64,000 bases of DNA from an uncultured archaeon (GTDB lineage: Archaea; Asgardarchaeota; Thorarchaeia; Thorarchaeales; Thorarchaeaceae): contig CAZSWP010000015.1 of assembly GCA_964610875.1 (NCBI GenBank), positions 13,758 to 77,757 on the forward strand, in the 5' to 3' direction. Positions 12,444-31,493 of this stretch are shown here, one piece after another. How positions within the stretch are numbered: the stretch's first letter is position 1; every line of letters begins with the position of its first letter. The notes under the pieces were generated by a model that was given only the letters and a program-made list of their open reading frames with translations, was not told the origin of the DNA and searched no databases. A program made the translations under genes and the position numbers.

Positions 12444-13787
12444 ATGCTACGCTCGATGTCGTTCAAAATCCATGAGATGCGGCGATATCTTATCCTTAGT
12501 CTAGTAGTATCAATGATTGCTATTCCAATTGCAGACTCGCTTGTCATTCAAAGAGATAGAAATCGGAATGAGATGTATGGCGAAGGTTTCTGGATATACG
12601 GGTTCCAAGTCTATGAAATGACCGACAGTGAACTTTCTGAGAAGATGGGTCCTCCCTACAATGACGGTGATCATACTCTCCCTGATTATCTTGGCAATAT
12701 CACGTACGAATATCCTGTCTTCGGACTCATATTCTTCGCCATCGCTACGTGGTTATATCCGGGAGTGGGAGGTTTTCAGCCGCTTTGGTTGAATTTCATT
12801 CTTGTACTCGTATTCAACCTGAATCTTGTATTGATTGCCATTCTTCTTCGCGATAAAATTTACAATGTACGTTGGGCAAGACTATTCTTTGCAGGATACT
12901 TCATCTATGGTCTAATAATGTCCGCAGGTGGCGGAAAACTCGAGCCTATCACTGACTGTCTACTCTTAATGGCTCTAGTACTTCGACAAGAGGAACAAAA
13001 TGGCAAAGCAATGTTCACACTCGGTCTATCAGTTCAGACTAAAATCTATCCTGTAGTGGCATTACCGATCCTCTTTCTTGCTGCCCCTACCTCAATAATC
13101 TGGTTTCTCGTTTCAACCCTTCTCACTGTCATCCCGTTTCTGTTTCTTGATGTAGGGTTTGATTCCCTATTAGAGCACTTTCTGAATACATCAAACTACA
13201 GCACTTATACAGTCAATCCTATGTATCCAGGGTTAGGTTTCTCAACAAGAGACTTATCCTCTGCAACTTCATCTTTCTACCTTTGGCCCCCTGCATTCAT
13301 TCCTTTGGTCATCTATGTGGCATTTATGCTCTACACGATACAAATATACTTACCACAATGGTCTAAAATCAAGCAAGAAAAAACGTGGCTTGAACGTTTC
13401 AGGAAGCTGATACCACTCTATGTGTACTGTATTCCAGCTATTCTTTTCCTATTCAGATGGGTCATGCCGTGGTACCTTTTCTGGTTTGGCATATTCATAT
13501 TTCTCTTTGATGACGACGAACGGTCAATAGGATATCTCAAGGAGATAACAATAGTAGGTTTTGTGTATACATTCGGTGTCATCTGTAACTGGATATATTT
13601 CTCCACAGGGCCTCTAATTGATTTCGCGGAACATTTCATTCTAGGATGGTGGACTATTCCTCGATTGGGTCTTCTTGTTGTTATAGCAGCATGCATCTTC
13701 TTTGTATGGAAGTATACCTTTGATTATATTGAGAACCGAGCTCGAGTCTTACATGAGGCTGAATCTAGAGGAGAACTCGTTATCTAG
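12444..13787 (+). CDS. Polytopic membrane GT-C glycosyltransferase (GT87/DUF2029/PIG-M-like)
   Basis: About 10 hydrophobic segments; YEYPV and TKIYPVVALP motifs. Confidence 0.6.
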   Translation: MLRSMSFKIHEMRRYLILSLVVSMIAIPIADSLVIQRDRNRNEMYGEGFWIYGFQVYEMTDSELSEKMGPPYNDGDHTLPDYLGNITYEYPVFGLIFFAIATWLYPGVGGFQPLWLNFILVLVFNLNLVLIAILLRDKIYNVRWARLFFAGYFIYGLIMSAGGGKLEPITDCLLLMALVLRQEEQNGKAMFTLGLSVQTKIYPVVALPILFLAAPTSIIWFLVSTLLTVIPFLFLDVGFDSLLEHFLNTSNYSTYTVNPMYPGLGFSTRDLSSATSSFYLWPPAFIPLVIYVAFMLYTIQIYLPQWSKIKQEKTWLERFRKLIPLYVYCIPAILFLFRWVMPWYLFWFGIFIFLFDDDERSIGYLKEITIVGFVYTFGVICNWIYFSTGPLIDFAEHFILGWWTIPRLGLLVVIAACIFFVWKYTFDYIENRARVLHEAESRGELVI

Positions 13788-20767: not shown

Positions 20768-21889
20768 GTGCAATTAGTTAGTAAACACCCGGACGGAATT
20801 AAAATGCCTGCACCATGTTACATCTGTGGCGCTGATGCGGAGATTGAGAGTCTTTGTACAGAATGCTACAATAAAGAGCATCCCCTTGCTACAATCCAAT
20901 CCGTTGTGTCCATTACTATCTGTAAGAAATGTGGTGCAATCAAAGTTCCTGGCGGATGGAAGACAATAGATGATGAAACTCAAAGTGATTCCGCAAGAGA
21001 AACTTATGTTGGTTATATTCTTCAAAAGGAGCTAAAGGTGACTGGAAATGATGTAGAGCTCTCAATTTTGGAGTCTAATCGCCTTGACCGCGTCTTACAA
21101 CTTGAATTGATAGTCACAGGTCACTCTCATCCTGATATTTCTCCTCATACGGAAACACTACCATTAGAGGTTCGTTTTAACTATGCCACATGTGATACCT
21201 GCTCTATGATGAGTGGAGGCTATTATGAATCAACGCTTCAAATAAGAGCTCAAGATCGTTTACTCTCCGATGATGAAAAGATACAGATTATCGAGATTGC
21301 ACGAGAGAAGACATATGCAGAGTATGGTCGTGATGCAAAGGCTTTCATTTTGCAAATTGATGAGATTAAATTTGGTCTGGACCTGTTCATAGGATCTGAA
21401 TCACTATGCAAAAAAATAGCAGATGAGATTCAGGCCTTGTTTCTTGCAGAACGGCAAGAAAATTACAAGCTAATTGGTCAAGAAAAGGGTGGTAAGGACA
21501 AGTTTCGAATTACTATTGTTCTCAGGTTGCCACGATTTTCAATTGGCGACATTATCAAAGTCAAAGGCAATCTCTGCGAAGTGAGGGACCTTGGCAAAGG
21601 TGGACTCTCGTGTTTTGACCTAGAAAACAAGGGGATTTTTACAATCTCTCAAAAGAGTGCAAAATGGAAGACAGTAGAGTTTGTTATGCCACAATCCGAG
21701 AAAAGAAAGTTCATGGTTGTTTCTAATGTATATGGGCAACCTGTTCAAATAATGGACTCGATGACTTATGAAACACGAGAAATACAGGTTGATGAATCCC
21801 ATCGAGATAATTACGAGAACGGTTCAATAATAGAAGTTATAGAATTTGAAAATCGAATATATCCAATACGTATGATTCCTAGAAAATGA
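20768..21889 (+). CDS. nmd3: NMD3 large-subunit biogenesis factor
   Basis: Four CxxC motifs, GGYYESTLQIR, GLDLFIGS, C-terminal OB/KOW-like region; probable ATG 20804. Confidence 0.9.
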   Translation: MQLVSKHPDGIKMPAPCYICGADAEIESLCTECYNKEHPLATIQSVVSITICKKCGAIKVPGGWKTIDDETQSDSARETYVGYILQKELKVTGNDVELSILESNRLDRVLQLELIVTGHSHPDISPHTETLPLEVRFNYATCDTCSMMSGGYYESTLQIRAQDRLLSDDEKIQIIEIAREKTYAEYGRDAKAFILQIDEIKFGLDLFIGSESLCKKIADEIQALFLAERQENYKLIGQEKGGKDKFRITIVLRLPRFSIGDIIKVKGNLCEVRDLGKGGLSCFDLENKGIFTISQKSAKWKTVEFVMPQSEKRKFMVVSNVYGQPVQIMDSMTYETREIQVDESHRDNYENGSIIEVIEFENRIYPIRMIPRK

Positions 21890-21986
21890 CCCACTATTCC
21901 GTGGTTTCGTTACTCTTAAATGGCTAGTCTATCACCTCATGTTAGATGCTGGGTAATACTCAGTTTTTACCAATTGGAGGATTATT

Positions 21987-22307
21987 TTGTCAAGAAGAGG
22001 TAAACAAACAGGAAATACAGAAGAGCTCACAAGAGTCCGAACACCACGTAGAAACGAAGGTGAACTCTTTGGAATTATCATTCAAATGTTAGGACATGAC
22101 CGTGTAAGAGTTCGTTGTGAAGATGGTAATATCCGAATTGGTAGAATTCCTGGTAAGTTCAAGAAAAGAGTCTGGATGCGCGTAGGCGATACAGTTCTAG
22201 TTGTACCCTGGGACTTTCAGACTGATGAAAAAGCAGATGTTGTATGGCGCTACAGGAATAATGAAGTTGATTGGTTGAAAAAACGTGGCATCTTAAAGAT
22301 GTTTTAA
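21987..22307 (+). CDS. eif1a: Translation initiation factor 1A
   Basis: MLGHDRVRVRCEDG..RIGRIPGK.KKRVWMRVGD.VLV.PWDFQ. Confidence 0.97.
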   Translation: MSRRGKQTGNTEELTRVRTPRRNEGELFGIIIQMLGHDRVRVRCEDGNIRIGRIPGKFKKRVWMRVGDTVLVVPWDFQTDEKADVVWRYRNNEVDWLKKRGILKMF

Positions 22308-22373
22308 ACCTTTTATCAACAAATTGTTCTATTATCATTGGTCAATTAATTGAGACCAAGGTGAAATCCCTAG

Positions 22374-23162
22374 TTGAAACGCGTTGAAACCAAGAAAAGG
22401 GTCATCGATGACGAGATTGAACGCCGTAAGATGAAACGGCGATATGACGTTGATGAGTTTAAAGTAGTTGAAGGAGTAATTGATCCTCCAACCCTAAAAG
22501 TATTGTACAAACTACTGAATAAGGGAACTTTACGAGCTGTTCATGGAGTGATAAGCACAGGAAAGGAAGCAAATGTGTATCGTGGGGAAAACTTGGACCG
22601 AGAAGCGGTTGCTGTCAAGATTTACAGAATGTCAACTGCCGAAACAGACTTCATGCGTGAATATATTGTAGGAGATCCACGTTTCAAACGAGTCGGAAAG
22701 AAAAACAGAGTTTTAATTCCTCAATGGGCAATGAAGGAATATAGGAATCTCAAGAGATATTTTGAATCTGAGGTAAAGGTTCCTGAACCCATTGACATCG
22801 AACGAAATGTTGTAGTAATGGAGTTTATCGGCGACTTGGAATCTAATCAACCCGCACCACTTCTGAAGAATGTAGTCTTGGAGGACCCTGTGGATGTCTT
22901 TGATGAGATTATTCATATGATTGATCTCAGCTATAACGAAGCAGGTCTGGTTCATGCTGATCTTAGTGAATTCAATATACTCTGGAACGGTGGCCCTGTC
23001 TTTATTGATGTTTCACAATCGGTTTTGACAATTCATGAGAATGCTAAAAGGTACCTCTATCGAGATATTCAAAACATAGTGTCTTATTTTACTAAGCTCG
23101 GAGTCGAAAAAGTAGACCCACTTGAAATTGCGAAACACATCATATCAAAGAGTGAAGAATAA
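22374..23162 (+). CDS. rio1: RIO1 serine kinase
   Basis: ISTGKEANVY, AVKIYR, YIVGDPRF, LVHADLSEFNIL, IDVSQSV. Confidence 0.95.
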   Translation: MKRVETKKRVIDDEIERRKMKRRYDVDEFKVVEGVIDPPTLKVLYKLLNKGTLRAVHGVISTGKEANVYRGENLDREAVAVKIYRMSTAETDFMREYIVGDPRFKRVGKKNRVLIPQWAMKEYRNLKRYFESEVKVPEPIDIERNVVVMEFIGDLESNQPAPLLKNVVLEDPVDVFDEIIHMIDLSYNEAGLVHADLSEFNILWNGGPVFIDVSQSVLTIHENAKRYLYRDIQNIVSYFTKLGVEKVDPLEIAKHIISKSEE

Positions 23163-23163
23163 C

Positions 23164-23727
23164 ATGTATTTCCACGAAACCGTCAGAGTTCCAATGGAGC
23201 GTCTTGGTGTAATTGTAGGCCGAAATGGACGAGTACGAAAAAGAGTCGAAAAGCTAACAAACACCAAGCTTGACATATCTTCAGAGGGCATGGTTACAAT
23301 AACGAGCCCAGAGAGTTCTGAAGATCCAGTATTAGCATGGAAAGCACGCGATATTGTTCGTGCAATGGCTAGGGGATTCAGCCCAAAGAAAGCTCTGAAT
23401 CTCATCGACGAAGAAACACGCTTGATTGTGATTTCGTTACGTGAAATGGTGGGTAATTCGTCAAGTCAGTTGAAAAGAGTATCTGGACGAATAATTGGGG
23501 AAAATGGACGAACACGTCGGGTCATAGAACAAACTGCAGGCGTTTATATATCAATTTATGGAAAAACAGTTGCTCTTATTGGCATGGACCCTGGTCTGGA
23601 TTATGCAACCAGAGCTGTTACTATGCTTATTGATGGAGCACCACATTCTGCAGTCTACAAATATCTAGAGAAATCTCGAAGAAGGATGAACCGTCAAGAG
23701 GCAGAGCTCTGGGAAGACTCTCTATAG
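23164..23727 (+). CDS. KH-domain rRNA-processing protein (Dim2/Pno1/Krr1)
   Basis: Two KH GxxG loops, AMARGFSP, GRIIGENG, GAPHSAVY; synteny with RIO1; ATG 23164. Confidence 0.92.
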   Translation: MYFHETVRVPMERLGVIVGRNGRVRKRVEKLTNTKLDISSEGMVTITSPESSEDPVLAWKARDIVRAMARGFSPKKALNLIDEETRLIVISLREMVGNSSSQLKRVSGRIIGENGRTRRVIEQTAGVYISIYGKTVALIGMDPGLDYATRAVTMLIDGAPHSAVYKYLEKSRRRMNRQEAELWEDSL

Positions 23728-23750
23728 CTCAATGTAATACGCGCTCTGAA

Positions 23751-25304
23751 ATGAGCTTATTGCTAACTAGTCTTGAATGTCTTATGACCAGTTATTCGAC
23801 GCGATATGAAATATACGATAGTATCTCCCCTGCAGAGTTTTTTTACAGAAATAAGCAGATGGCAGGCTTCAGTAATCCCTCACAAGCACTCTATACAACA
23901 GTCAGAGAACTTGTAGAGAACAGTCTTGATGCCTGCGAGGCTGCAGCTGTTTTCCCTGAACTTCAGATTAGCATTATCAGAAAAACATCTGATGAAATCA
24001 AAGTTCGTGTGGGTGATAATGGTTCAGGAGTTCCAGACGAACAAGTAGCATCTGCTTTTGGTCGAGTCCTCTATGGCAGCAAGTTCGAATCACGACAACG
24101 GAGAGGTACTTTCGGTCTTGGTGTCACAATGGCTGTTCTATACGGTCAGATAACAACAAATCAGGCTGTTTCGATTCATACTAGGACTAAAAACACACTA
24201 GGCCAAAAATATACGCTCTTTATAGATATTGAAGCAAACAGACCTATTCTCGATTCAAAAATACAACTGAAACGAAGAGAAACTGGAACTACAGTTTCCT
24301 TGTCGATGGTAGGTGACTTAGCCAGGTCAAAAGATCGGATTATTGATTATTTACGGCTAACGACAGTTTCAAGTCCTCATGCAATGATAAAGCTAAACAT
24401 AGATGATGGGGAACCCTTTATTTTTGGGTGCTACTCCTCCGCACTCCCAAGCATTCCCCTTAGTACAAAACCGCATCCTCGTTCTGCTGATACTGAAACC
24501 ATCAGAAGATTGGTAGATGAGAACCCTGGTCTAAAATTGAGAGATTTCCTCATGCAATCATTTCAACAAGTAGGTAGAAAGGGGGCATCCCAATTTCTTC
24601 GATTCTATGGATTCGAACCAAGCAAAGTTGTTTCCCATTTGAGTCGGAAACAACTAACCCGGATATCTAATGCACTCCAACAATATGACAAATTTGGCCG
24701 TCCTGATGCCACATGTCTGAGTCCTATTGGAAAGAAGAACATCCAACAGTCGATAAAATCCCTGTATAACACTGATGTGGTGTACTATTCTTCCAGAGTA
24801 CCAGCTGAATGGAGTGGTTGGCCATTTATAATTGAAGGCGCACTAGTTATAGACAAGAGTTTACCTGCACAGGATTTTCCAACATTATACCGTTTTGCGA
24901 ATCGTGTTCCCCTTCTATACGATACAAATGATGATATTCTTTATCGTGCTTTGAAGAAAATATCCTGGAGCCGATATGGATTGGATTCTGATCATCCTAC
25001 TGCAATATTTGTTCATTTTTGCTCAACAAGAGTACCCTACAATGGTGCAGGGAAACAATCTATGGCATCGATGCCAGAGATTGAAACTGAAGCATCTCTC
25101 CTATTCAAAGAATTAGGCCGCAAGATGAAACGTGCCATTTCTAAACATCGGAATCTACAACGTGACAGAAGTCGCATGCTTCGCTTTGAGAAGAGCTTTA
25201 AACTGGTGGCTAAATACAGCTATCAACTTGCAGAAATTAGGAAACGGCCTGATACTGGTGATATGATTACAAGTCTATTTAGGGATGATCAAGATGACAA
25301 CTAA
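23751..25304 (+). CDS. top6B: DNA topoisomerase VI subunit B
   Basis: SPAEFFYRN, ELVENSLDA, DNGSG, YGSKF..RQ.RG.FGLG, KPHP, ANRVPLLY, STRVPY..AGKQS. Confidence 0.93.
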   Translation: MSLLLTSLECLMTSYSTRYEIYDSISPAEFFYRNKQMAGFSNPSQALYTTVRELVENSLDACEAAAVFPELQISIIRKTSDEIKVRVGDNGSGVPDEQVASAFGRVLYGSKFESRQRRGTFGLGVTMAVLYGQITTNQAVSIHTRTKNTLGQKYTLFIDIEANRPILDSKIQLKRRETGTTVSLSMVGDLARSKDRIIDYLRLTTVSSPHAMIKLNIDDGEPFIFGCYSSALPSIPLSTKPHPRSADTETIRRLVDENPGLKLRDFLMQSFQQVGRKGASQFLRFYGFEPSKVVSHLSRKQLTRISNALQQYDKFGRPDATCLSPIGKKNIQQSIKSLYNTDVVYYSSRVPAEWSGWPFIIEGALVIDKSLPAQDFPTLYRFANRVPLLYDTNDDILYRALKKISWSRYGLDSDHPTAIFVHFCSTRVPYNGAGKQSMASMPEIETEASLLFKELGRKMKRAISKHRNLQRDRSRMLRFEKSFKLVAKYSYQLAEIRKRPDTGDMITSLFRDDQDDN

Positions 25305-26352
25305 CCAAGATGCAATTAGCAGGTTACAAGCCTTTGGAGTGGAAGTGGCTTCCAAGATTCAATCTGGTGAGTTTCCTGCAGTTGAAATTCCGGATAGGAA
25401 TACAAGTAACATTGTTTATGATACAAAATTAGAGCAGTATGTATTAGGGCCAAAAAAGAGTAGAAGGGAATCGGCAAATATCAGGCATGTTCATAGTTTT
25501 GCTCAGCTTACATGGGTTGCTGCATTTGCTAAAGACTTGCTTATTTCTGGGAGAACAAGTTCTCTAAGGGACCTATACTATTCAAGTGAAGCATATGGTC
25601 TCAAATTCAAAGACCAACCTGAATCCAACCGAGTGGTTTCAGATTTGGAATGCTTACTAGATATGTCCAGAGAAGACTTTGGTATTTTTCCTGAAGAACA
25701 CTCTTCAATTTATGGAGAAGTCATAATGGAATATACGGTATCAGGATACGAGGGACGTAAAGTTGACCTCACAGTGAGTCCTGATGGTCTTCCCATCGGT
25801 CGTGCTCTAATGACAGCAAAACCTGTGTCAACAAATGCCAAAATCATCCTAGCTGTTGAGTCTGGAGGCATGTTCTCACGCTTGATTGAAACTGAATCTT
25901 GGAAGGATATGAGCGCAGTACTGGTACATCTAGGTGGTCAGGCGCCTAGATCAACAAGACGCTTGCTGAAGTGCTTACATACAGAACTGAATTTGCCTGT
26001 CTATGTATTTACTGATGGCGATCCATGGGGTATGCACATTGCACGAGTTATTATGTCTGGAAGTGCAAATGCTGCTCATGTTAAGGGTCTGTCCATACCG
26101 ACTGCTAGGTGGATTGGAGTTACTGCCGCGGATATAAAGAAACACAATCTTCCAACAGAAGATATGAGTGACTATGATCTAAGAAGATTGGATGAGCTAA
26201 CTAATGATATTCGATACTCATCAGAATTCTGGCAAAATCAGATACATAAATTCAAACAACTAAGAAAGAAAGCCGAACAGCAAGCTTTCAGTAGACATGG
26301 CATTGATTATGTGGTTGATTCATACTTGACCGATAAACTCTCTGCATTTTAG
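25285..26352 (+). CDS. top6A: DNA topoisomerase VI subunit A
   Basis: SLRDLYY (catalytic Tyr), TOPRIM AVES/DGDPWG, KAEQQA. Confidence 0.95.
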   Translation: MIKMTTNQDAISRLQAFGVEVASKIQSGEFPAVEIPDRNTSNIVYDTKLEQYVLGPKKSRRESANIRHVHSFAQLTWVAAFAKDLLISGRTSSLRDLYYSSEAYGLKFKDQPESNRVVSDLECLLDMSREDFGIFPEEHSSIYGEVIMEYTVSGYEGRKVDLTVSPDGLPIGRALMTAKPVSTNAKIILAVESGGMFSRLIETESWKDMSAVLVHLGGQAPRSTRRLLKCLHTELNLPVYVFTDGDPWGMHIARVIMSGSANAAHVKGLSIPTARWIGVTAADIKKHNLPTEDMSDYDLRRLDELTNDIRYSSEFWQNQIHKFKQLRKKAEQQAFSRHGIDYVVDSYLTDKLSAF

Positions 26353-26372: not shown

Positions 26373-27410
26373 TCATATCAGACCTGAGTTAAATGGATAT
26401 GCGAACAGAAGCAGAAACAAACCCCCATACGCTATTAACGCCTGAAGAATCAGTAGAAGCATGACATTCTTCTTTTCAGTAATATTATCTGATAGCCATG
26501 GGAATAACCAATACATTGTGAATGGTCCTTCCACCTCCATAGTCCCATCATCTCTGGGCTTTGCGAATTTGACCCACTCTTTGCCTTTCCTTTTCACATA
26601 AACTCTGTATACCAAATACATTAGAAAATTGATACCAAAAGTGAAGTAAAGCACTATTGCCAGTCTGTCAAAGTTACCAAGAACAAGTGCTACTGCCATA
26701 GCTGCTCCAATTGGCAGTCTTCCTACATCTCCTGGCAAAACCTTTGCGGGATATCTGTTGAATATATAGAATGCCACAGTTGCCCCAAGCAGTGCTGCAG
26801 CAACGGTTGAAGCATCAATCTGGCTGGAGGAAATCTCTGCTCCTGTCATGACCGGTATCAGAATCACATAGATCACTAGAGATGAGGCATTTATAGCAGC
26901 AAGACCTGTTTCTAAACCATTCATTCCACCATACATGTTAGTAGAGTCAATAATGAACGTCATTATGAGTGGGACAATCACCAGTGGATATAGTATCCCT
27001 AAATCCAAGGTACCAATTATTGGAATGGACATTGTTGTTGTACCAACATTCAATGCCATCATTGGAATTGAGGCAATGAGTGGCAATACTACCTTGGTTC
27101 TATTGCTAAAGTCTAAGGTGTCGTCCAATAATCCAATCATCCCCGCCATGAGTATTGAAACCAAAGCCGCAAGCAATCCTGGATTGATAATTAATTCCAA
27201 ACCAAAAGTCCGTATTCCTATGCATACGAGAAGACTGGATACTATTGCAAATAGCAGGATGTATCCTGCACCCTTCGGGACTTCAGGTCTATCTGGTTTA
27301 TGAACATCAGTACCAGTTATCCCCTTTTCCCTGAGGGCCCTTATGGTACCAGGCATTAGTAGAATTACCAATACAAATGAGAAAATCAATGCAATAGCAA
27401 CTGTTATCAT
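26373..27410 (-). CDS. UDP-GlcNAc:dolichol-phosphate GlcNAc-1-P transferase (AglH/ALG7-like, MraY/GT4 family)
   Basis: G.DVHK..RPEVP, GLLDD, STNMYGGMNGLE, FNRYPAKVLPGDVG. Confidence 0.85.
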   Translation of the reverse strand: MITVAIALIFSFVLVILLMPGTIRALREKGITGTDVHKPDRPEVPKGAGYILLFAIVSSLLVCIGIRTFGLELIINPGLLAALVSILMAGMIGLLDDTLDFSNRTKVVLPLIASIPMMALNVGTTTMSIPIIGTLDLGILYPLVIVPLIMTFIIDSTNMYGGMNGLETGLAAINASSLVIYVILIPVMTGAEISSSQIDASTVAAALLGATVAFYIFNRYPAKVLPGDVGRLPIGAAMAVALVLGNFDRLAIVLYFTFGINFLMYLVYRVYVKRKGKEWVKFAKPRDDGTMEVEGPFTMYWLFPWLSDNITEKKNVMLLLILQALIAYGGLFLLLFAYPFNSGLI

Positions 27411-27604
27411 TTCTATGACGCCTCTAGTTAGAGTTCTTTGACATCAAACCCGTTTTACACTTTTCGGGAATTGTTTGTTAAAGGTTACAGTACATTATCT
27501 ATTCTAACGGAAACTCTTTTAACGTCCCTGAAGCTGGACCGCATCGTTCATGGGTCTGAGGCAATAGAATAACTCAGATTTATACCATCACATGGTGATT
27601 TGTA

Positions 27605-30565
27605 TTGAGCCTGCTGCATAGAAGAATCGCAACAATCGTGTTACTGGCACTCTTTGTAACAAGTGGTGTCATGACAGCTTTTCCAGTAGTGGACTCTGGG
27701 GATTCCATACTTGCCACTAATGATATGAAACAAAACAGTATACCATCCCAGTCAGTACTGAACGCATCTATCCCATATGTAGATGAGCATTATGGATATG
27801 CTGATGGAATAATTGATCCCACAGAGTATGCCTACACGTATACTGATCTGGTATCTGGAATTACAGTATACCTTGAACATAATTCTTCTATTCTCTTTGT
27901 AGGCCTCTCTGCAAGGACTTCAGGCTGGATTGGAATCGGTTGGAAGAACTACACAGATGACTTCACCACTGAAGGTCTGAATGGTAGTGATTTAATATAT
28001 GGCTATGCCCCTGGAACCCCTCATTCTCCAGTTATTAGAGTGACAGGAGATGAACCAATCACCGTTCATTACATTCTCAAACTTAGAAATGGAACTGTTC
28101 TTGAAGAAGGTGATGTTCCAAATGATGAATCAACTACCCCCTTCAAAGAAGAAACGCTCTTATTACCGGATTATATTGATAACATTCTCGGAATGCGAAT
28201 TGGTGAAATACGTAACTTCATAATTCCTGCTGAGATTGCATATAATCAATCCACCCATCCATTGTATGGTGAAGATCTGGAATATATCGTAAAAGTGACG
28301 CGAATTGCCGAGTCTTTCCAGAATCCCGCAGACGCTAGTGAGATCATATACAGTGAAGAATACGGGATTAGCACTTATCAACACCAAACCGATGACAATC
28401 AAAGTCAGGTTTTAGCATCTGGTGGTTCAGATGATGGCACAAATACTCAACTTGAATATTTCATACAGATGAATTCCACAGACATCCAAGACGTTCCACT
28501 TCTGAATGATAGTGAAATTAGTTATCCCCTTATGCTGCTATATAGTGATAGTGAGGATATAACGCAAATACCCACACAACACAATGATTGGGCAAATCCA
28601 CTTGGAGTCATATTCATTCCAAATGCAGCTCCTGAGATCACATTCGAGACCCCGATTCAAGATGGCACATATGACTGGATTTTGAAAATATCTGCAAATG
28701 TTACTGACAATTCATGGATTCGAAGGGCGTTCTATAAAGTTGATGATGAAAACTGGACGGAGATCTTCTATAAATTCAAAACTGACCTCTGGGAAACACA
28801 AATTGACCTCTCCAGTTATGTCACTGGATTACACACTGTGTGGCTTAATGCAACAGATCCTTCTAATGTGACAAGTATTAACAGTGTGAATATATCCGTC
28901 GACCGACCTTACCAACCCCTTCTTGGAATGAGGCTTGATGTTGTTCGAACAGTATATACTAAACTCTATCATCTGACAGAGATTGTTGATACTTTTACCA
29001 TAGAAAACAACGGATCTGTAGTGATTAATTCAATTGACATATATCTTCCAGAGAACTGGTATAATTACCAAATGTCAATCTCCGCCGAGGGTGAAGATGA
29101 AACTGTTCTAAAGATACTGGATTTGGGTTTGGAAAATGGGATGAGGAATTGGAAAATATTCCTTGCTGAAGGCGTCAATTTTGGCGAGTCTTATACACTA
29201 ACCATCGTAACATTCTACCACTCTCTCCATACACTTACTGACTATGATAATGAAATCTATGAGGTTTGTTACCTTCGATACCCTGTGGTTCCATATGTCT
29301 TACGCCGTGCTCAGTTAGGTGTTGAATTCAGAAGTGGTGATAGTCTAAATGGCGAAAGTCCTGAAGGTCTTGAAACCAACATTGCACCAATGGAGGTTGA
29401 GGAGGTAACAATGTCTATCAAGTCATTTACGCCTGTAATAGTAGCTGATCGTCACACTGAAGTAAAAATTGACCCATGGGGTTGGTTAAACTACCACGAA
29501 ACAATCACGCTTCGAAACATAGGTCCTACAAGAGAGCTCACGTTATCCTTCAATATACCTGAAGGTTCTACTACCATCAAGATATATGATAAGGTAGGAA
29601 TTCTTGCGAAATCTCAACCTGGTGGTACATGGTACACAAATGAAACGGTTACTCTGCAAATCGACCTTAGAAGCGATCGTTTTGGGCAGGATGCTCTCTT
29701 ACCCAATTATCAATACACATTCAACATCGATTATACCATGGAACTCTCAACTTATCAAACTCCTGTAATCTCTGGCACAAAACTGAATCTACCAATGGCA
29801 ACACTTGGGGAAGTCCTGATAGAGAAGCACATTGTTGATGCCATATTATCATATTCTGTAGCAACAGTTGAAGCTAGTGATGGTTATCGACTGTTATATG
29901 GTGTATTTGACAACACTCTTCGTTATACATACCATAATACCACCAACCAGAATCCTCCCGATATCTACATTGTTTACCAAACCTCTTTGTTGTCCAGTTC
30001 CCGTCCATTAGCTTTTAGCCTAATTTTTGGTCTAATTGCTATCATCTATGTCGGATATAGAGCGTTCAACCCCCCTGTTGATAAGAGTCTAATCAGTAGA
30101 AAGGATGACGAAGATGAGGTTGGTCGCGTGAGTGGAGCTCCCCCTGACCTTCTCAGCACTTTCGCTAGTTTATATTCTAGAAAAACTGCACTTAATTTGG
30201 ACATGGAAAAACTTGAAGCTTCCAGACGTCGTGGTAAAGTGAGTAAGAAAGAGTATATGATTCGTGAGCGTGATTTGAAATCACAGATTGATGAAGTGGA
30301 ATCGGAATTGCCAGAGATGAAAGAGAAGCTGATATCTTATGGTCCTAAATACCGTGACATGATTGCACAACTCGAGCTCCAAAATGAGCGCATTGAAGGT
30401 GCTAAGGCTGGACTTAGACAACTGCTACTCCGCAAGAAGAAACAGAAAATCAGTCGTGTAGCCTTTGAAAAGTCACGTCAAGACTATCTCAAGACAATCA
30501 AGAAAGCAACAAGTGCAACGGATAGAATGCTTCTTTCCATCCAAGAAGAAGCAGGAGACATATAA
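27605..30565 (+). CDS. Multidomain ribophorin-I (OST1)-like membrane protein: signal peptide, DOMON with inserted FKBP domain, Ig-like, ribophorin I, TM, helical cytosolic tail
   Basis: GWIGIGW..NGSDLIYGY (DOMON); VHYILKLRNG...GMRIGEIRNFIIPAEIAY...GEDLEYIVKV (FKBP); VVRTV...TFTIENNG and RHTEVKIDPWGWLNYHETITLRNIG (ribophorin I); RPLAFSLIFGLIAIIY (TM). Confidence 0.75.
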   Translation: MSLLHRRIATIVLLALFVTSGVMTAFPVVDSGDSILATNDMKQNSIPSQSVLNASIPYVDEHYGYADGIIDPTEYAYTYTDLVSGITVYLEHNSSILFVGLSARTSGWIGIGWKNYTDDFTTEGLNGSDLIYGYAPGTPHSPVIRVTGDEPITVHYILKLRNGTVLEEGDVPNDESTTPFKEETLLLPDYIDNILGMRIGEIRNFIIPAEIAYNQSTHPLYGEDLEYIVKVTRIAESFQNPADASEIIYSEEYGISTYQHQTDDNQSQVLASGGSDDGTNTQLEYFIQMNSTDIQDVPLLNDSEISYPLMLLYSDSEDITQIPTQHNDWANPLGVIFIPNAAPEITFETPIQDGTYDWILKISANVTDNSWIRRAFYKVDDENWTEIFYKFKTDLWETQIDLSSYVTGLHTVWLNATDPSNVTSINSVNISVDRPYQPLLGMRLDVVRTVYTKLYHLTEIVDTFTIENNGSVVINSIDIYLPENWYNYQMSISAEGEDETVLKILDLGLENGMRNWKIFLAEGVNFGESYTLTIVTFYHSLHTLTDYDNEIYEVCYLRYPVVPYVLRRAQLGVEFRSGDSLNGESPEGLETNIAPMEVEEVTMSIKSFTPVIVADRHTEVKIDPWGWLNYHETITLRNIGPTRELTLSFNIPEGSTTIKIYDKVGILAKSQPGGTWYTNETVTLQIDLRSDRFGQDALLPNYQYTFNIDYTMELSTYQTPVISGTKLNLPMATLGEVLIEKHIVDAILSYSVATVEASDGYRLLYGVFDNTLRYTYHNTTNQNPPDIYIVYQTSLLSSSRPLAFSLIFGLIAIIYVGYRAFNPPVDKSLISRKDDEDEVGRVSGAPPDLLSTFASLYSRKTALNLDMEKLEASRRRGKVSKKEYMIRERDLKSQIDEVESELPEMKEKLISYGPKYRDMIAQLELQNERIEGAKAGLRQLLLRKKKQKISRVAFEKSRQDYLKTIKKATSATDRMLLSIQEEAGDI

Positions 30566-30650
30566 TTCTCCTGTTTCCACTTTCTTTACCATATCAGGAA
30601 GTCTTATCAAACTATAAGAAGTAGGTTTCAGCCCTCAAGGGGATTACTTC

Positions 30651-31493
30651 ATGAATGATCAAGATATTAAACGAGATGAAATAAGTGCAAAAGAATTTCT
30701 GAAAACTAGCACAAAAGCATTAGAGATGTATCAATACCTCAGTGGCTCTCCCCGTGTACAATCATATCTCAGAACAGCAAATCGAATGGCGGTATCTAGG
30801 TTAGGTTATACTGACCATGGTCCTGTTCATGCAGAAGTCGCAACTTGGTATGCTCTAAAAGCATTTGATATCCTTGATGAAACATTCATGCCAAATGTAG
30901 TGGCAGAAGGTATTGGTGACACAGATGATGCCAGATTAGTAGTACTCTCATCTACATATCTCCACGACATTGGCATGGTTATTCACAGAACAGAACATAA
31001 TCAAGGTGCTATACAGCTTGCAGCACCAATTTTAGAAAAGAAACTGAACCAACTCTATGATAATCCTGGGACAGCAACTGACATTCTATCAGCTATCTTT
31101 CATGGCATATTTGCTCATGATGATGACACACAATGTCTGACCTTCGAGGCAGGTATAACGAAAATCGGGGATGGTTGTGATATGACAAAAGGAAGAACGG
31201 TAGTACCTTTCCAGCAAGGAAAAGTTGACATCCATAGTGTGAGTGCTATGGCCATACGAAATGTGCATCTCGAAAAAGGTGAGAACATTCCCTTAGAGAT
31301 AACAGTCGCAATGGATAATCCAGCTGGTGTTTTTCAAGTTGAAGCCGTTCTTATGAAGAAACTATCTACAAGTGGTTTAGAGGACCACGTAAAAGTTAAG
31401 GTGCAAGTCAATGGCGAGCGTCTCTTACTGTCCCAGGTAAAACGCTTGCATCGTGACAAATTGGAAGCAGTAGTAGCTGAGTCCAGAGAATAG
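30651..31493 (+). CDS. HD-superfamily phosphohydrolase (COG3294-like)
   Basis: RLGYTDHGPVH, YLHDIGM, GDGCDMTKGR, DIHSVSA. Confidence 0.88.
   Translation: MNDQDIKRDEISAKEFLKTSTKALEMYQYLSGSPRVQSYLRTANRMAVSRLGYTDHGPVHAEVATWYALKAFDILDETFMPNVVAEGIGDTDDARLVVLSSTYLHDIGMVIHRTEHNQGAIQLAAPILEKKLNQLYDNPGTATDILSAIFHGIFAHDDDTQCLTFEAGITKIGDGCDMTKGRTVVPFQQGKVDIHSVSAMAIRNVHLEKGENIPLEITVAMDNPAGVFQVEAVLMKKLSTSGLEDHVKVKVQVNGERLLLSQVKRLHRDKLEAVVAESRE

Follow-up and report, generated by a model that had tools for sequence, protein, structure and literature searches.

We analysed a 64,000-nucleotide stretch of DNA (hereafter the window; positions 13,758 to 77,757 of contig CAZSWP010000015.1, assembly GCA_964610875.1) from an uncultured archaeon of the Thorarchaeaceae, with attention to one long gene whose domains and immediate surroundings are listed in Table 1. 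This gene is the single orthologue of ribophorin I, the OST1 subunit of the oligosaccharyltransferase (OST), in this Thorarchaeota-type Asgard archaeon. Ribophorin I is among the 'eukaryotic signature' components of the translocon that Asgard archaea possess; even in eukaryotes, what it does is still poorly defined. Structure prediction and comparison showed that the 986-residue protein has a type I topology and that its ribophorin part is preceded by an N-terminal, extracellular extension of about 410 residues. This extension, called the head below, consists of a DOMON β-sandwich with an FKBP domain lodged in one of its loops, followed by an immunoglobulin (Ig)-like spacer. Ribophorin I itself being known from Asgard archaea, what is new here is the lineage-specific FKBP-in-DOMON head. 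No description of an FKBP-in-DOMON or ribophorin fusion architecture was found in the searchable literature, which does not prove that none exists. The TTG start codon and the signal peptide are supported because orthologues with a full N-terminus share an n-region (M-S/G-L-L-x-x-R-I/L-A-T) and, next to it, a hydrophobic core. A preliminary description of the same DNA, made from its letters alone, had already delimited this reading frame and noted a signal peptide, and both stand.

Table 1. Features of the OST1 locus, in window coordinates.
Feature	Position	Strand	Evidence and remarks
Glycos_transf_4 gene, candidate AglH/Alg7-type dolichyl-P GlcNAc-1-P transferase	26373..27410	-	Pfam E 3.5e-28; head-to-head with OST1
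Divergent intergenic region, 194 bp, shared with the AglH-like gene	27411..27604	.	TTTATA at 27579-27584, 21 nt before the TTG
DOMON::FKBP-Ig-ribophorin I (OST1) fusion, whole gene	27605..30565	+	986 aa, TTG start
Signal peptide region, aa 1-~30	27605..27694	+	Basic n-region HRR, then hydrophobic core; read from sequence, kept in orthologues
DOMON N-terminal half, aa ~51-140	27755..28024	+	Motifs ADGIIDPTEY, GWIGIGW, GLNGSDLIYGY; fold and sequence matches
FKBP domain nested in DOMON loop, aa 141-238	28025..28318	+	Without insert-in-flap (IF); Pfam, profile and fold matches
DOMON C-terminal half, aa 239-339	28319..28621	+	VIA alignments to model residue ~312-314; C halves of P0204/P0262 aligned by BLASTP
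Ig-like / E-set (Big_7-like) domain, aa 340-435	28622..28909	+	Fold Z 11-13.4; Big_7 in 34/40 orthologues
Ribophorin I luminal (here extracellular) part, two β-sandwich domains, aa 436-794	28910..29986	+	DPWGW and RFG motifs; Foldseek, VIA
Single transmembrane (TM) helix, aa ~795-823	29987..30073	+	Helix in the AF2 model (residues 362-388) that aligns with the TM segment of RPN1/Ost1
Cytosolic 4-helix bundle, aa ~847-983	30143..30553	+	Homologous to the OST1 ribosome-binding C-terminal domain (8WHN)
Hairpin, then T-rich tract overlapping the stop codon	30548..30577	+	Possible transcription end; consensus match

The structure of the C-terminal 553 residues was predicted from an alignment of 40 orthologues (A2), with a predicted local distance difference test (pLDDT) score of 87.5. 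When this model was compared to the PDB with Foldseek, the eight best matches were all RPN1 or Ost1, with E-values ranging from 1.9e-30 (8b6l_O) to 5e-19 and 6s7o_E and 6ezn_A among them; the first match to any other protein appeared at E 1e-8. Alignment with VIA gave Z-scores of 27.6-31.6 over 367-514 residues for RPN1/Ost1, 8b6l_O being aligned over residues 4 to 546 of the model, and the next structures were unrelated sandwiches at Z 12.9. In the model, the TM helix spans aa ~795-821 and is followed by a disordered linker and four long helices. This tail matches the corresponding OST1 domain of Lokiarchaeon MK-D1 (8WHN) both in sequence (E 1.8e-6 with the single sequence, 1.8e-9 with a profile) and in structure (Z 17.4, root mean square deviation (rmsd) 2.1, 141 of 142 residues aligned, 24% identity). 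When the PDB was searched with a profile of the C-terminal part, 8WHN was the sole sequence match and eukaryotic RPN1 was not found, so that structure was needed to make the link to RPN1. The C-terminal 553 residues reproduce the whole of eukaryotic RPN1/Ost1, i.e. two sandwiches, a TM helix and a four-helix tail. Ribophorin-I-like repeats and a TM helix had been suspected from the sequence, and the strong match of aa 434-829 to the ribophorin I fold (Foldseek, VIA) confirms them; the charged helical cytosolic tail noted at the same time can now be specified as the OST1 four-helix bundle.

Set against the human (8B6L, 6S7O) and yeast (6EZN) structures, aa 434-986 cover the full mature RPN1/Ost1 at 13-16% identity, whereas the additional ~410 N-terminal residues occur in no solved RPN1/Ost1. 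The archaeal protein is predicted to reside in the cell membrane, and its eukaryotic counterparts reside in the endoplasmic reticulum (ER). A closer relative is the OST1 of MK-D1 (Ca. Prometheoarchaeum syntrophicum; 607 aa, 8WHN; PMC11417166), which belongs to the same orthologous family, is single-copy and is part of the same OST1/OST3/6/STT3 translocon set, but lacks the head, which is restricted to the order of the window's archaeon. The cytosolic domain of MK-D1 OST1 pulls down ribosomes, and ribosome binding has been shown for both the MK-D1 and the human domains (PMC11417166).

The head was modelled from a second orthologue alignment (A1; AF2 pLDDT 87.9, predicted TM-score (pTM) 0.82), and the pTM value suggests a fixed arrangement of its three domains. 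Foldseek searches with the three-domain model were swamped by tandem-Ig proteins; an exhaustive VIA search separated the domains. In this search the DOMON fold aligned over residues 21 to 314 of the head model, skipping residues 114-211, which form the FKBP domain. The highest scores were obtained with ethylbenzene dehydrogenase (EBDH) gamma (2ivf_C, Z 16.0, 168 residues aligned), nitrite oxidoreductase (Nxr) gamma (7b04_C, Z 15.1) and the DOMON domain of human dopamine β-hydroxylase (DBH; 4zel_B, Z 13.8), followed by the cytochrome domains of cellobiose and pyranose dehydrogenases (CDH/PDH) at about 12.5 (1d7c, 12.4) and by CBM9 (1i82, 12.4). An Atlas cluster composed 100% of Pfam DOMON members matched the head at an rmsd of 1.8 over 163 residues. 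The Pfam DOMON hidden Markov model (HMM) recognized 9 of the 40 orthologues, weakly (best E 4.3e-4), and the head-module profile retrieved P0204 and P0262, two proteins with DOMONs that Pfam does recognize (E 2e-32 and 2.5e-24; hhalign probability 95.9). By BLASTP, the N-terminal half of the domain is 41-44% identical to these two proteins (E 5e-12 and 9e-10) and the C-terminal half 34-35% (E 3e-6 and 1e-5). The halves lie about 25 residues apart in P0204 and P0262, and about 140 apart here. Because BLASTP aligns both of them to uninterrupted DOMONs, the FKBP insertion site can be placed just after the GSDLIYGY strand. A DOMON split into two halves had been read from the sequence beforehand; the fold alignment that skips the FKBP domain and the BLASTP matches of each half both bear this out. 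Compared to the DOMON superfamily (PF03351; EBDH gamma, CDH cytochrome, DBH DOMON, CBM9), the sandwich fold is the same, with Z-scores of 12.4-16.0, but the domain here differs by its interruption of about 100 residues, by the absence of a haem-type Met and by conserved sequons, including one at N126. P0204 and P0262 are membrane-anchored proteins with tandem uninterrupted DOMONs; in sequence they stand nearest to the host DOMON, and they keep the Met that is Leu in it. Proteins of this type are candidates for the pre-insertion form.

The guest domain was recognized by Pfam FKBP_C (PF00254) at aa 150-230, with 24.6 bits against a cut-off of 21.1. The same family matched all 40 orthologues (best E 6.3e-12), and a profile search also gave matches to FKBP structures. 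In the fold comparison, aa 141-238 aligned best to SlyD (3cgm; Z 12.3, rmsd 1.9, 33% identity), then to FKBP13 (2pbc; Z 11.5) and 4nnr (Z 11.1); 4nnr_A was also matched by Foldseek, with a TM-score of 0.73 normalised on the target, and the translocon protein FKBP11 (9ygy_A) reached Z 10.5. A complete FKBP domain at aa ~144-235, proposed from the sequence, agrees with the Pfam, profile and fold matches (nt 28034-28309 corresponds exactly to aa 144-235). There is no IF chaperone domain, only 13 residues lying between Y213 and Y227, and the domain aligns to the SlyD delta-IF structure 4odp and, of 3cgm, to the FKBP part alone. SlyD and archaeal FKBP17-26 (3cgm, 3prb, 4dt4) are the closest FKBP structures and, like the present protein, show domain nesting. 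Unlike SlyD, however, the FKBP domain is here the guest inside another domain, carries no IF insert and is extracytoplasmic rather than cytosolic. The Ig-like domain that follows, which had been noticed as a repeat at about aa 340-433, was matched by VIA (Z 11-13.4) and by Big_7 in most orthologues (best E 2.4e-9), the window protein itself giving a weak Big_7 match (E 0.14). Thus, comparison of each segment of the models with known structures, a check that the preliminary description had proposed, returned the ribophorin I, FKBP and DOMON folds. The protein contains 17 N-x-S/T sequons, all in the predicted extracellular part and none in the tail; 14 of them are in the head. Most are conserved in more than 75% of 120 orthologues, and the N126 sequon lies beside L125. 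The head module is probably itself a glycoprotein.

More than 120 full-length homologues of 930-1010 aa were found, with 48-58% identity to the window protein and mostly from Thorarchaeota metagenome-assembled genomes. Their ribophorin identity has been missed in annotation, since databases label them merely as FKBP-type peptidyl-prolyl cis-trans isomerase, Ig-like domain-containing or hypothetical proteins. A survey of Asgard genomes, which had been suggested along with the first reading, was carried out with a ribophorin profile on 251 genomes of the phylum, including 59 of the window's family. The profile matched in 58 of these 59 family genomes, always in fused frames of ~985-1000 aa. Within the same order, one sister-family genome (G112) has a frame of 1034 aa that includes the head, and all other sampled Asgard families have ribophorin frames of ~580-630 aa without it. 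In the genome of the closest unfused family (G029), no head module was found anywhere. G236, a single-contig genome of the window's family that is 86% complete, is the sole family genome in which our searches found neither the fused OST1 nor the AglH-like neighbour; the whole locus may be missing there. In the window's own genome, which is 95% complete, the A2 profile gave a single match and no second, unfused ribophorin.

Among 1.84 billion representative proteins, the full head is confined to about eight clusters, all from this lineage. They comprise the fused OST1 forms and a few short proteins of ~570-595 aa, in which the head is followed by a further Ig/PKD-like domain, a stalk rich in Thr and a TM anchor at the C-terminus. 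Standalone copies of this kind were found in 2 of 61 sampled family genomes. Judging from this distribution, the main home of the head module is OST1. The tree of head modules is poorly resolved, with the sister-family sequence on a very long branch and a support of 57/97 for the separation of fused and short forms; we tentatively regard the standalone copies as derived and sporadic. The window genome has one such paralogue, P0122 (G000:C23:20533-22317), a type I surface protein of 595 aa that is ~39% identical to the OST1 head.

FKBPs of the ER are separate proteins, as the preliminary description correctly stated, and a 2025 finding makes the analogy with the present protein closer: in mammals, FKBP11 binds to the ribosome-Sec61-OST-A translocon (PMC12804085; PDB 9N9J/9YGY). 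In both cases an FKBP stands on the lumenal or extracytoplasmic side beside OST, with a ribosome-binding element, predicted by homology in the archaeal protein, on the cytosolic side. FKBP11, however, is a protein in its own right that spans the membrane once and binds the ribosome through a basic helix; it is dynamically recruited and serves as an adaptor for CCDC134, whereas the FKBP domain described here is a covalent part of OST1 and lies within a DOMON. The resemblance probably arose by convergence. A second parallel is offered by malectin, which is reported to interact with ribophorin I during quality control in the ER of animals and plants (PMC9144812). Both systems place a carbohydrate-binding-module-like β-sandwich on ribophorin I, sugar binding by the DOMON being putative; malectin differs in being a separate protein of another fold family that binds Glc2-N-glycans. 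By analogy, the fusion would achieve covalently, in an archaeon, what eukaryotes obtain without covalent links by placing FKBP11 on the Sec61-OST-A translocon and malectin on RPN1.

We propose that the protein is an OST1 with a built-in foldase or holdase head, possibly glycan-binding, that operates at the translocon-OST, and we consider this probable. In such a scheme the tail would bind the translating ribosome and thereby hold the protein at the Sec61/AglB(STT3)/OST3-6 translocon of the cytoplasmic membrane. The head would keep an FKBP-type prolyl isomerase or holdase near the site at which chains come out unfolded and receive their N-glycans, and its non-haem DOMON may bind a glycan or another ligand. 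The head may in this way assist folding outside the cell, where ATP is absent. We infer a complex of the protein with AglB/STT3 and a catalytically active FKBP, and the DOMON may bind sugar. At the level of architecture, the earlier suggestion stands: OST1 carries an FKBP and a DOMON as covalently attached parts outside the cytoplasm.

Several observations count against this proposal. On the ribophorin side, a scan of the whole protein with Pfam and NCBIfam returned FKBP_C and a weak Big_7 alone, with no Ribophorin_I, DOMON or NCBIfam family; Ribophorin_I (PF04597) does not match the window protein itself, while it matches 9 of the 40 orthologues (~50% identical to it) with a best E of 1.4e-10. 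A genome-wide search with PF04597 missed the window's own ribophorin gene, and the absence of a match with this HMM is therefore uninformative here. On the FKBP side, the pocket residues were mapped through an HMMER alignment to FKBP13, with FKBP12 numbering, and their conservation was followed over the 120 orthologues. Two positions diverge from the canonical pocket and vary, F36 being replaced by I, L or V and D37 by Gln (92 of 120) or Glu (26 of 120), and F46 is a Thr. Given this divergence, judged from sequence, catalysis by the FKBP domain may be weak or absent. Moreover, the pocket of FKBP11 is buried and has been argued not to act on nascent chains (PMC12804085).

These points lead to the main rival explanation, a real possibility though in our opinion an improbable one. 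The architecture would be the same, with the FKBP as a non-catalytic binding or scaffold domain and the head as an adaptor or spacer that docks a partner protein, the S-layer or a glycan. Besides the Gln/Glu at D37 and the Thr at F46, it can call on the Tyr at W59, on the adaptor role of mammalian FKBP11 with its buried pocket at the translocon, and on the pTM value of the head, which suggests that the FKBP is packed rigidly on the DOMON. Other positions of the pocket speak differently. Y26 and Y82 are kept, as Y156 and Y213, in 120/120 orthologues, and three further positions are substituted but constant: W59 is Y190 in 119/120, F99 is Y227 in 114/120 and I56 is L187 in 119/120. The substitutions F36L, D37E and W59Y and the retention of Y26 and Y82, as first read from the letters, agree with this mapping. 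Because the tyrosines and L187 are near-invariant, the pocket appears to be under strong constraint without being canonical. The near-invariance of four pocket aromatics and of L187 among 120 orthologues that share ~50% identity argues for a functional pocket, be it in binding or in catalysis. In addition, SlyD-type FKBPs lack W59 and F36 and are nevertheless active.

The foldase or holdase proposal also places the protein at an N-glycosylating translocon, and the genomic context bears on this point. Of 60 genomes of the order, the sister family among them, about 52 have the fused OST1 gene head-to-head with the AglH-type gene; in the others a contig break interrupts the locus, and no counter-example was seen. 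The same pairing was found at one unfused Asgard ribophorin (G240), and three other unfused ones are without it, so that the AglH/OST1 pairing may predate the fusion. This arrangement suggests that the first and the last steps of N-glycosylation are co-regulated. In the window's genome, STT3/AglB is split over two contig ends (G000:C32:44722-45216, an N-terminal fragment, and G000:C89:5679-6476), and an OST3/6-like gene (G000:C32:40311-40631) lies ~4 kb upstream of the N-terminal fragment. OST3/6 and STT3 may thus be clustered, with OST1 elsewhere beside AglH. Alternatively, the ribophorin-like part could act at the Sec translocon or the ribosome independently of AglB, which would make the protein a surface chaperone tethered to the translocon and not directly involved in N-glycosylation. 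The location of STT3 and of the OST3/6-like gene on another contig fits this idea, and ribosome binding is the only experimental datum for an Asgard OST1. We nevertheless find it unlikely, as the ribophorin fold is that of an OST subunit in all solved eukaryotic complexes and the pairing of the gene with that of the first enzyme of lipid-linked oligosaccharide synthesis is conserved.

The nature of the DOMON ligand was approached through the same 120 orthologues, in which the invariant residues of the domain are mostly acidic or aromatic. In haem-type members of the superfamily, the Met of the G-x-M-x-x-S/D strand is a haem ligand. This axial Met is absent here: the aligned residue is L125, and the position is occupied by Leu in 107 orthologues, by Ile in 12, by Val in 1 and by Met in none, which substantiates the earlier remark that the haem-Met position is a Leu. 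The possibility that the DOMON is a haem-b (cytochrome-type) domain, and that the head is devoted to extracellular electron transfer or redox chemistry, draws on its best fold matches, which are haem-binding relatives (EBDH gamma, Nxr gamma and the CDH cytochrome), and on two nearly invariant histidines, H62 and H92. Yet the Met-aligned position is never a Met, H62 is replaced by Tyr in 12 orthologues and H92 by Gln in 7, and CBM9 and the DBH DOMON are matched about equally well; we hold a haem-binding head to be very improbable.

Lastly, that the long frame is an assembly or gene-calling artefact joining an FKBP surface protein to a ribophorin gene, an idea for which one could invoke the metagenome-type assembly in 124 contigs with 5.8% contamination, can be dismissed because the same continuous fused frame is conserved in 58/59 family genomes, in G112 of the sister family and in >120 database proteins, and unitigs bridge all junctions. 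These unitigs come from two DNA runs of one microbial-mat study, the only runs in which a sequencing-run search detected the stretch (no RNA run was found); they cover 27300-30700 at 100% identity and run across the edges of the FKBP insertion (27874-28405) as well as the joint between head and ribophorin part (28397-29457). The runs probably correspond to the source sample and hence are not independent support, whereas the recurrence of the fused frame across genomes argues independently against a chimera. Where the preliminary description allowed for a missing ribophorin fold, a missing FKBP structural match or a chimeric assembly, we found both folds and an unbroken frame.

A bolder version of the foldase or holdase proposal, which we regard as rather doubtful, would make the archaeal oligosaccharyltransferase a site of quality control through its head: the DOMON would sense whether chains that AglB has just modified carry a glycan or lack one, and the FKBP would isomerise or hold these chains. 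If this were true, Thorarchaeia would have evolved, in one polypeptide and independently of eukaryotes, a lectin-plus-foldase surveillance resembling that of malectin, FKBP11 and RPN1, and this would be the first sign, for any prokaryote, that the control of protein folding is coupled to glycans. In any case, this lineage has hard-wired a prolyl-isomerase fold and a ligand-binding sandwich onto OST1, which makes it a natural experiment on the role of OST1, and this experiment points to OST1 handling unfolded substrates beside the glycosylation site. Although the organisms are uncultured, the head is a soluble, well-predicted module of ~400 aa that can be expressed and assayed.

Two short signals flank the gene. 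The TTTATA box in the divergent intergenic region could be the OST1 promoter, and the hairpin with its T-tract at the stop codon could act as a terminator, both readings being drawn from sequence patterns. The downstream gene on the same strand (30651-31493) was considered as a partner of the system and rejected: its product is cytosolic and has no Pfam match, and the hairpin and T-tract lie between the two genes. This product (P0272, 280 aa) contains the conserved His/Asp motifs HGPVHA, HDIG and AHDD, reminiscent of HD-type phosphohydrolases. Upstream, the forward strand at 20768-26352 holds a series of information-processing genes, which encode NMD3, a RIO1 kinase, a KH-domain (Pno1/Krr1-like) protein and the subunits B and A of topoisomerase VI, whose genes overlap at their ends.

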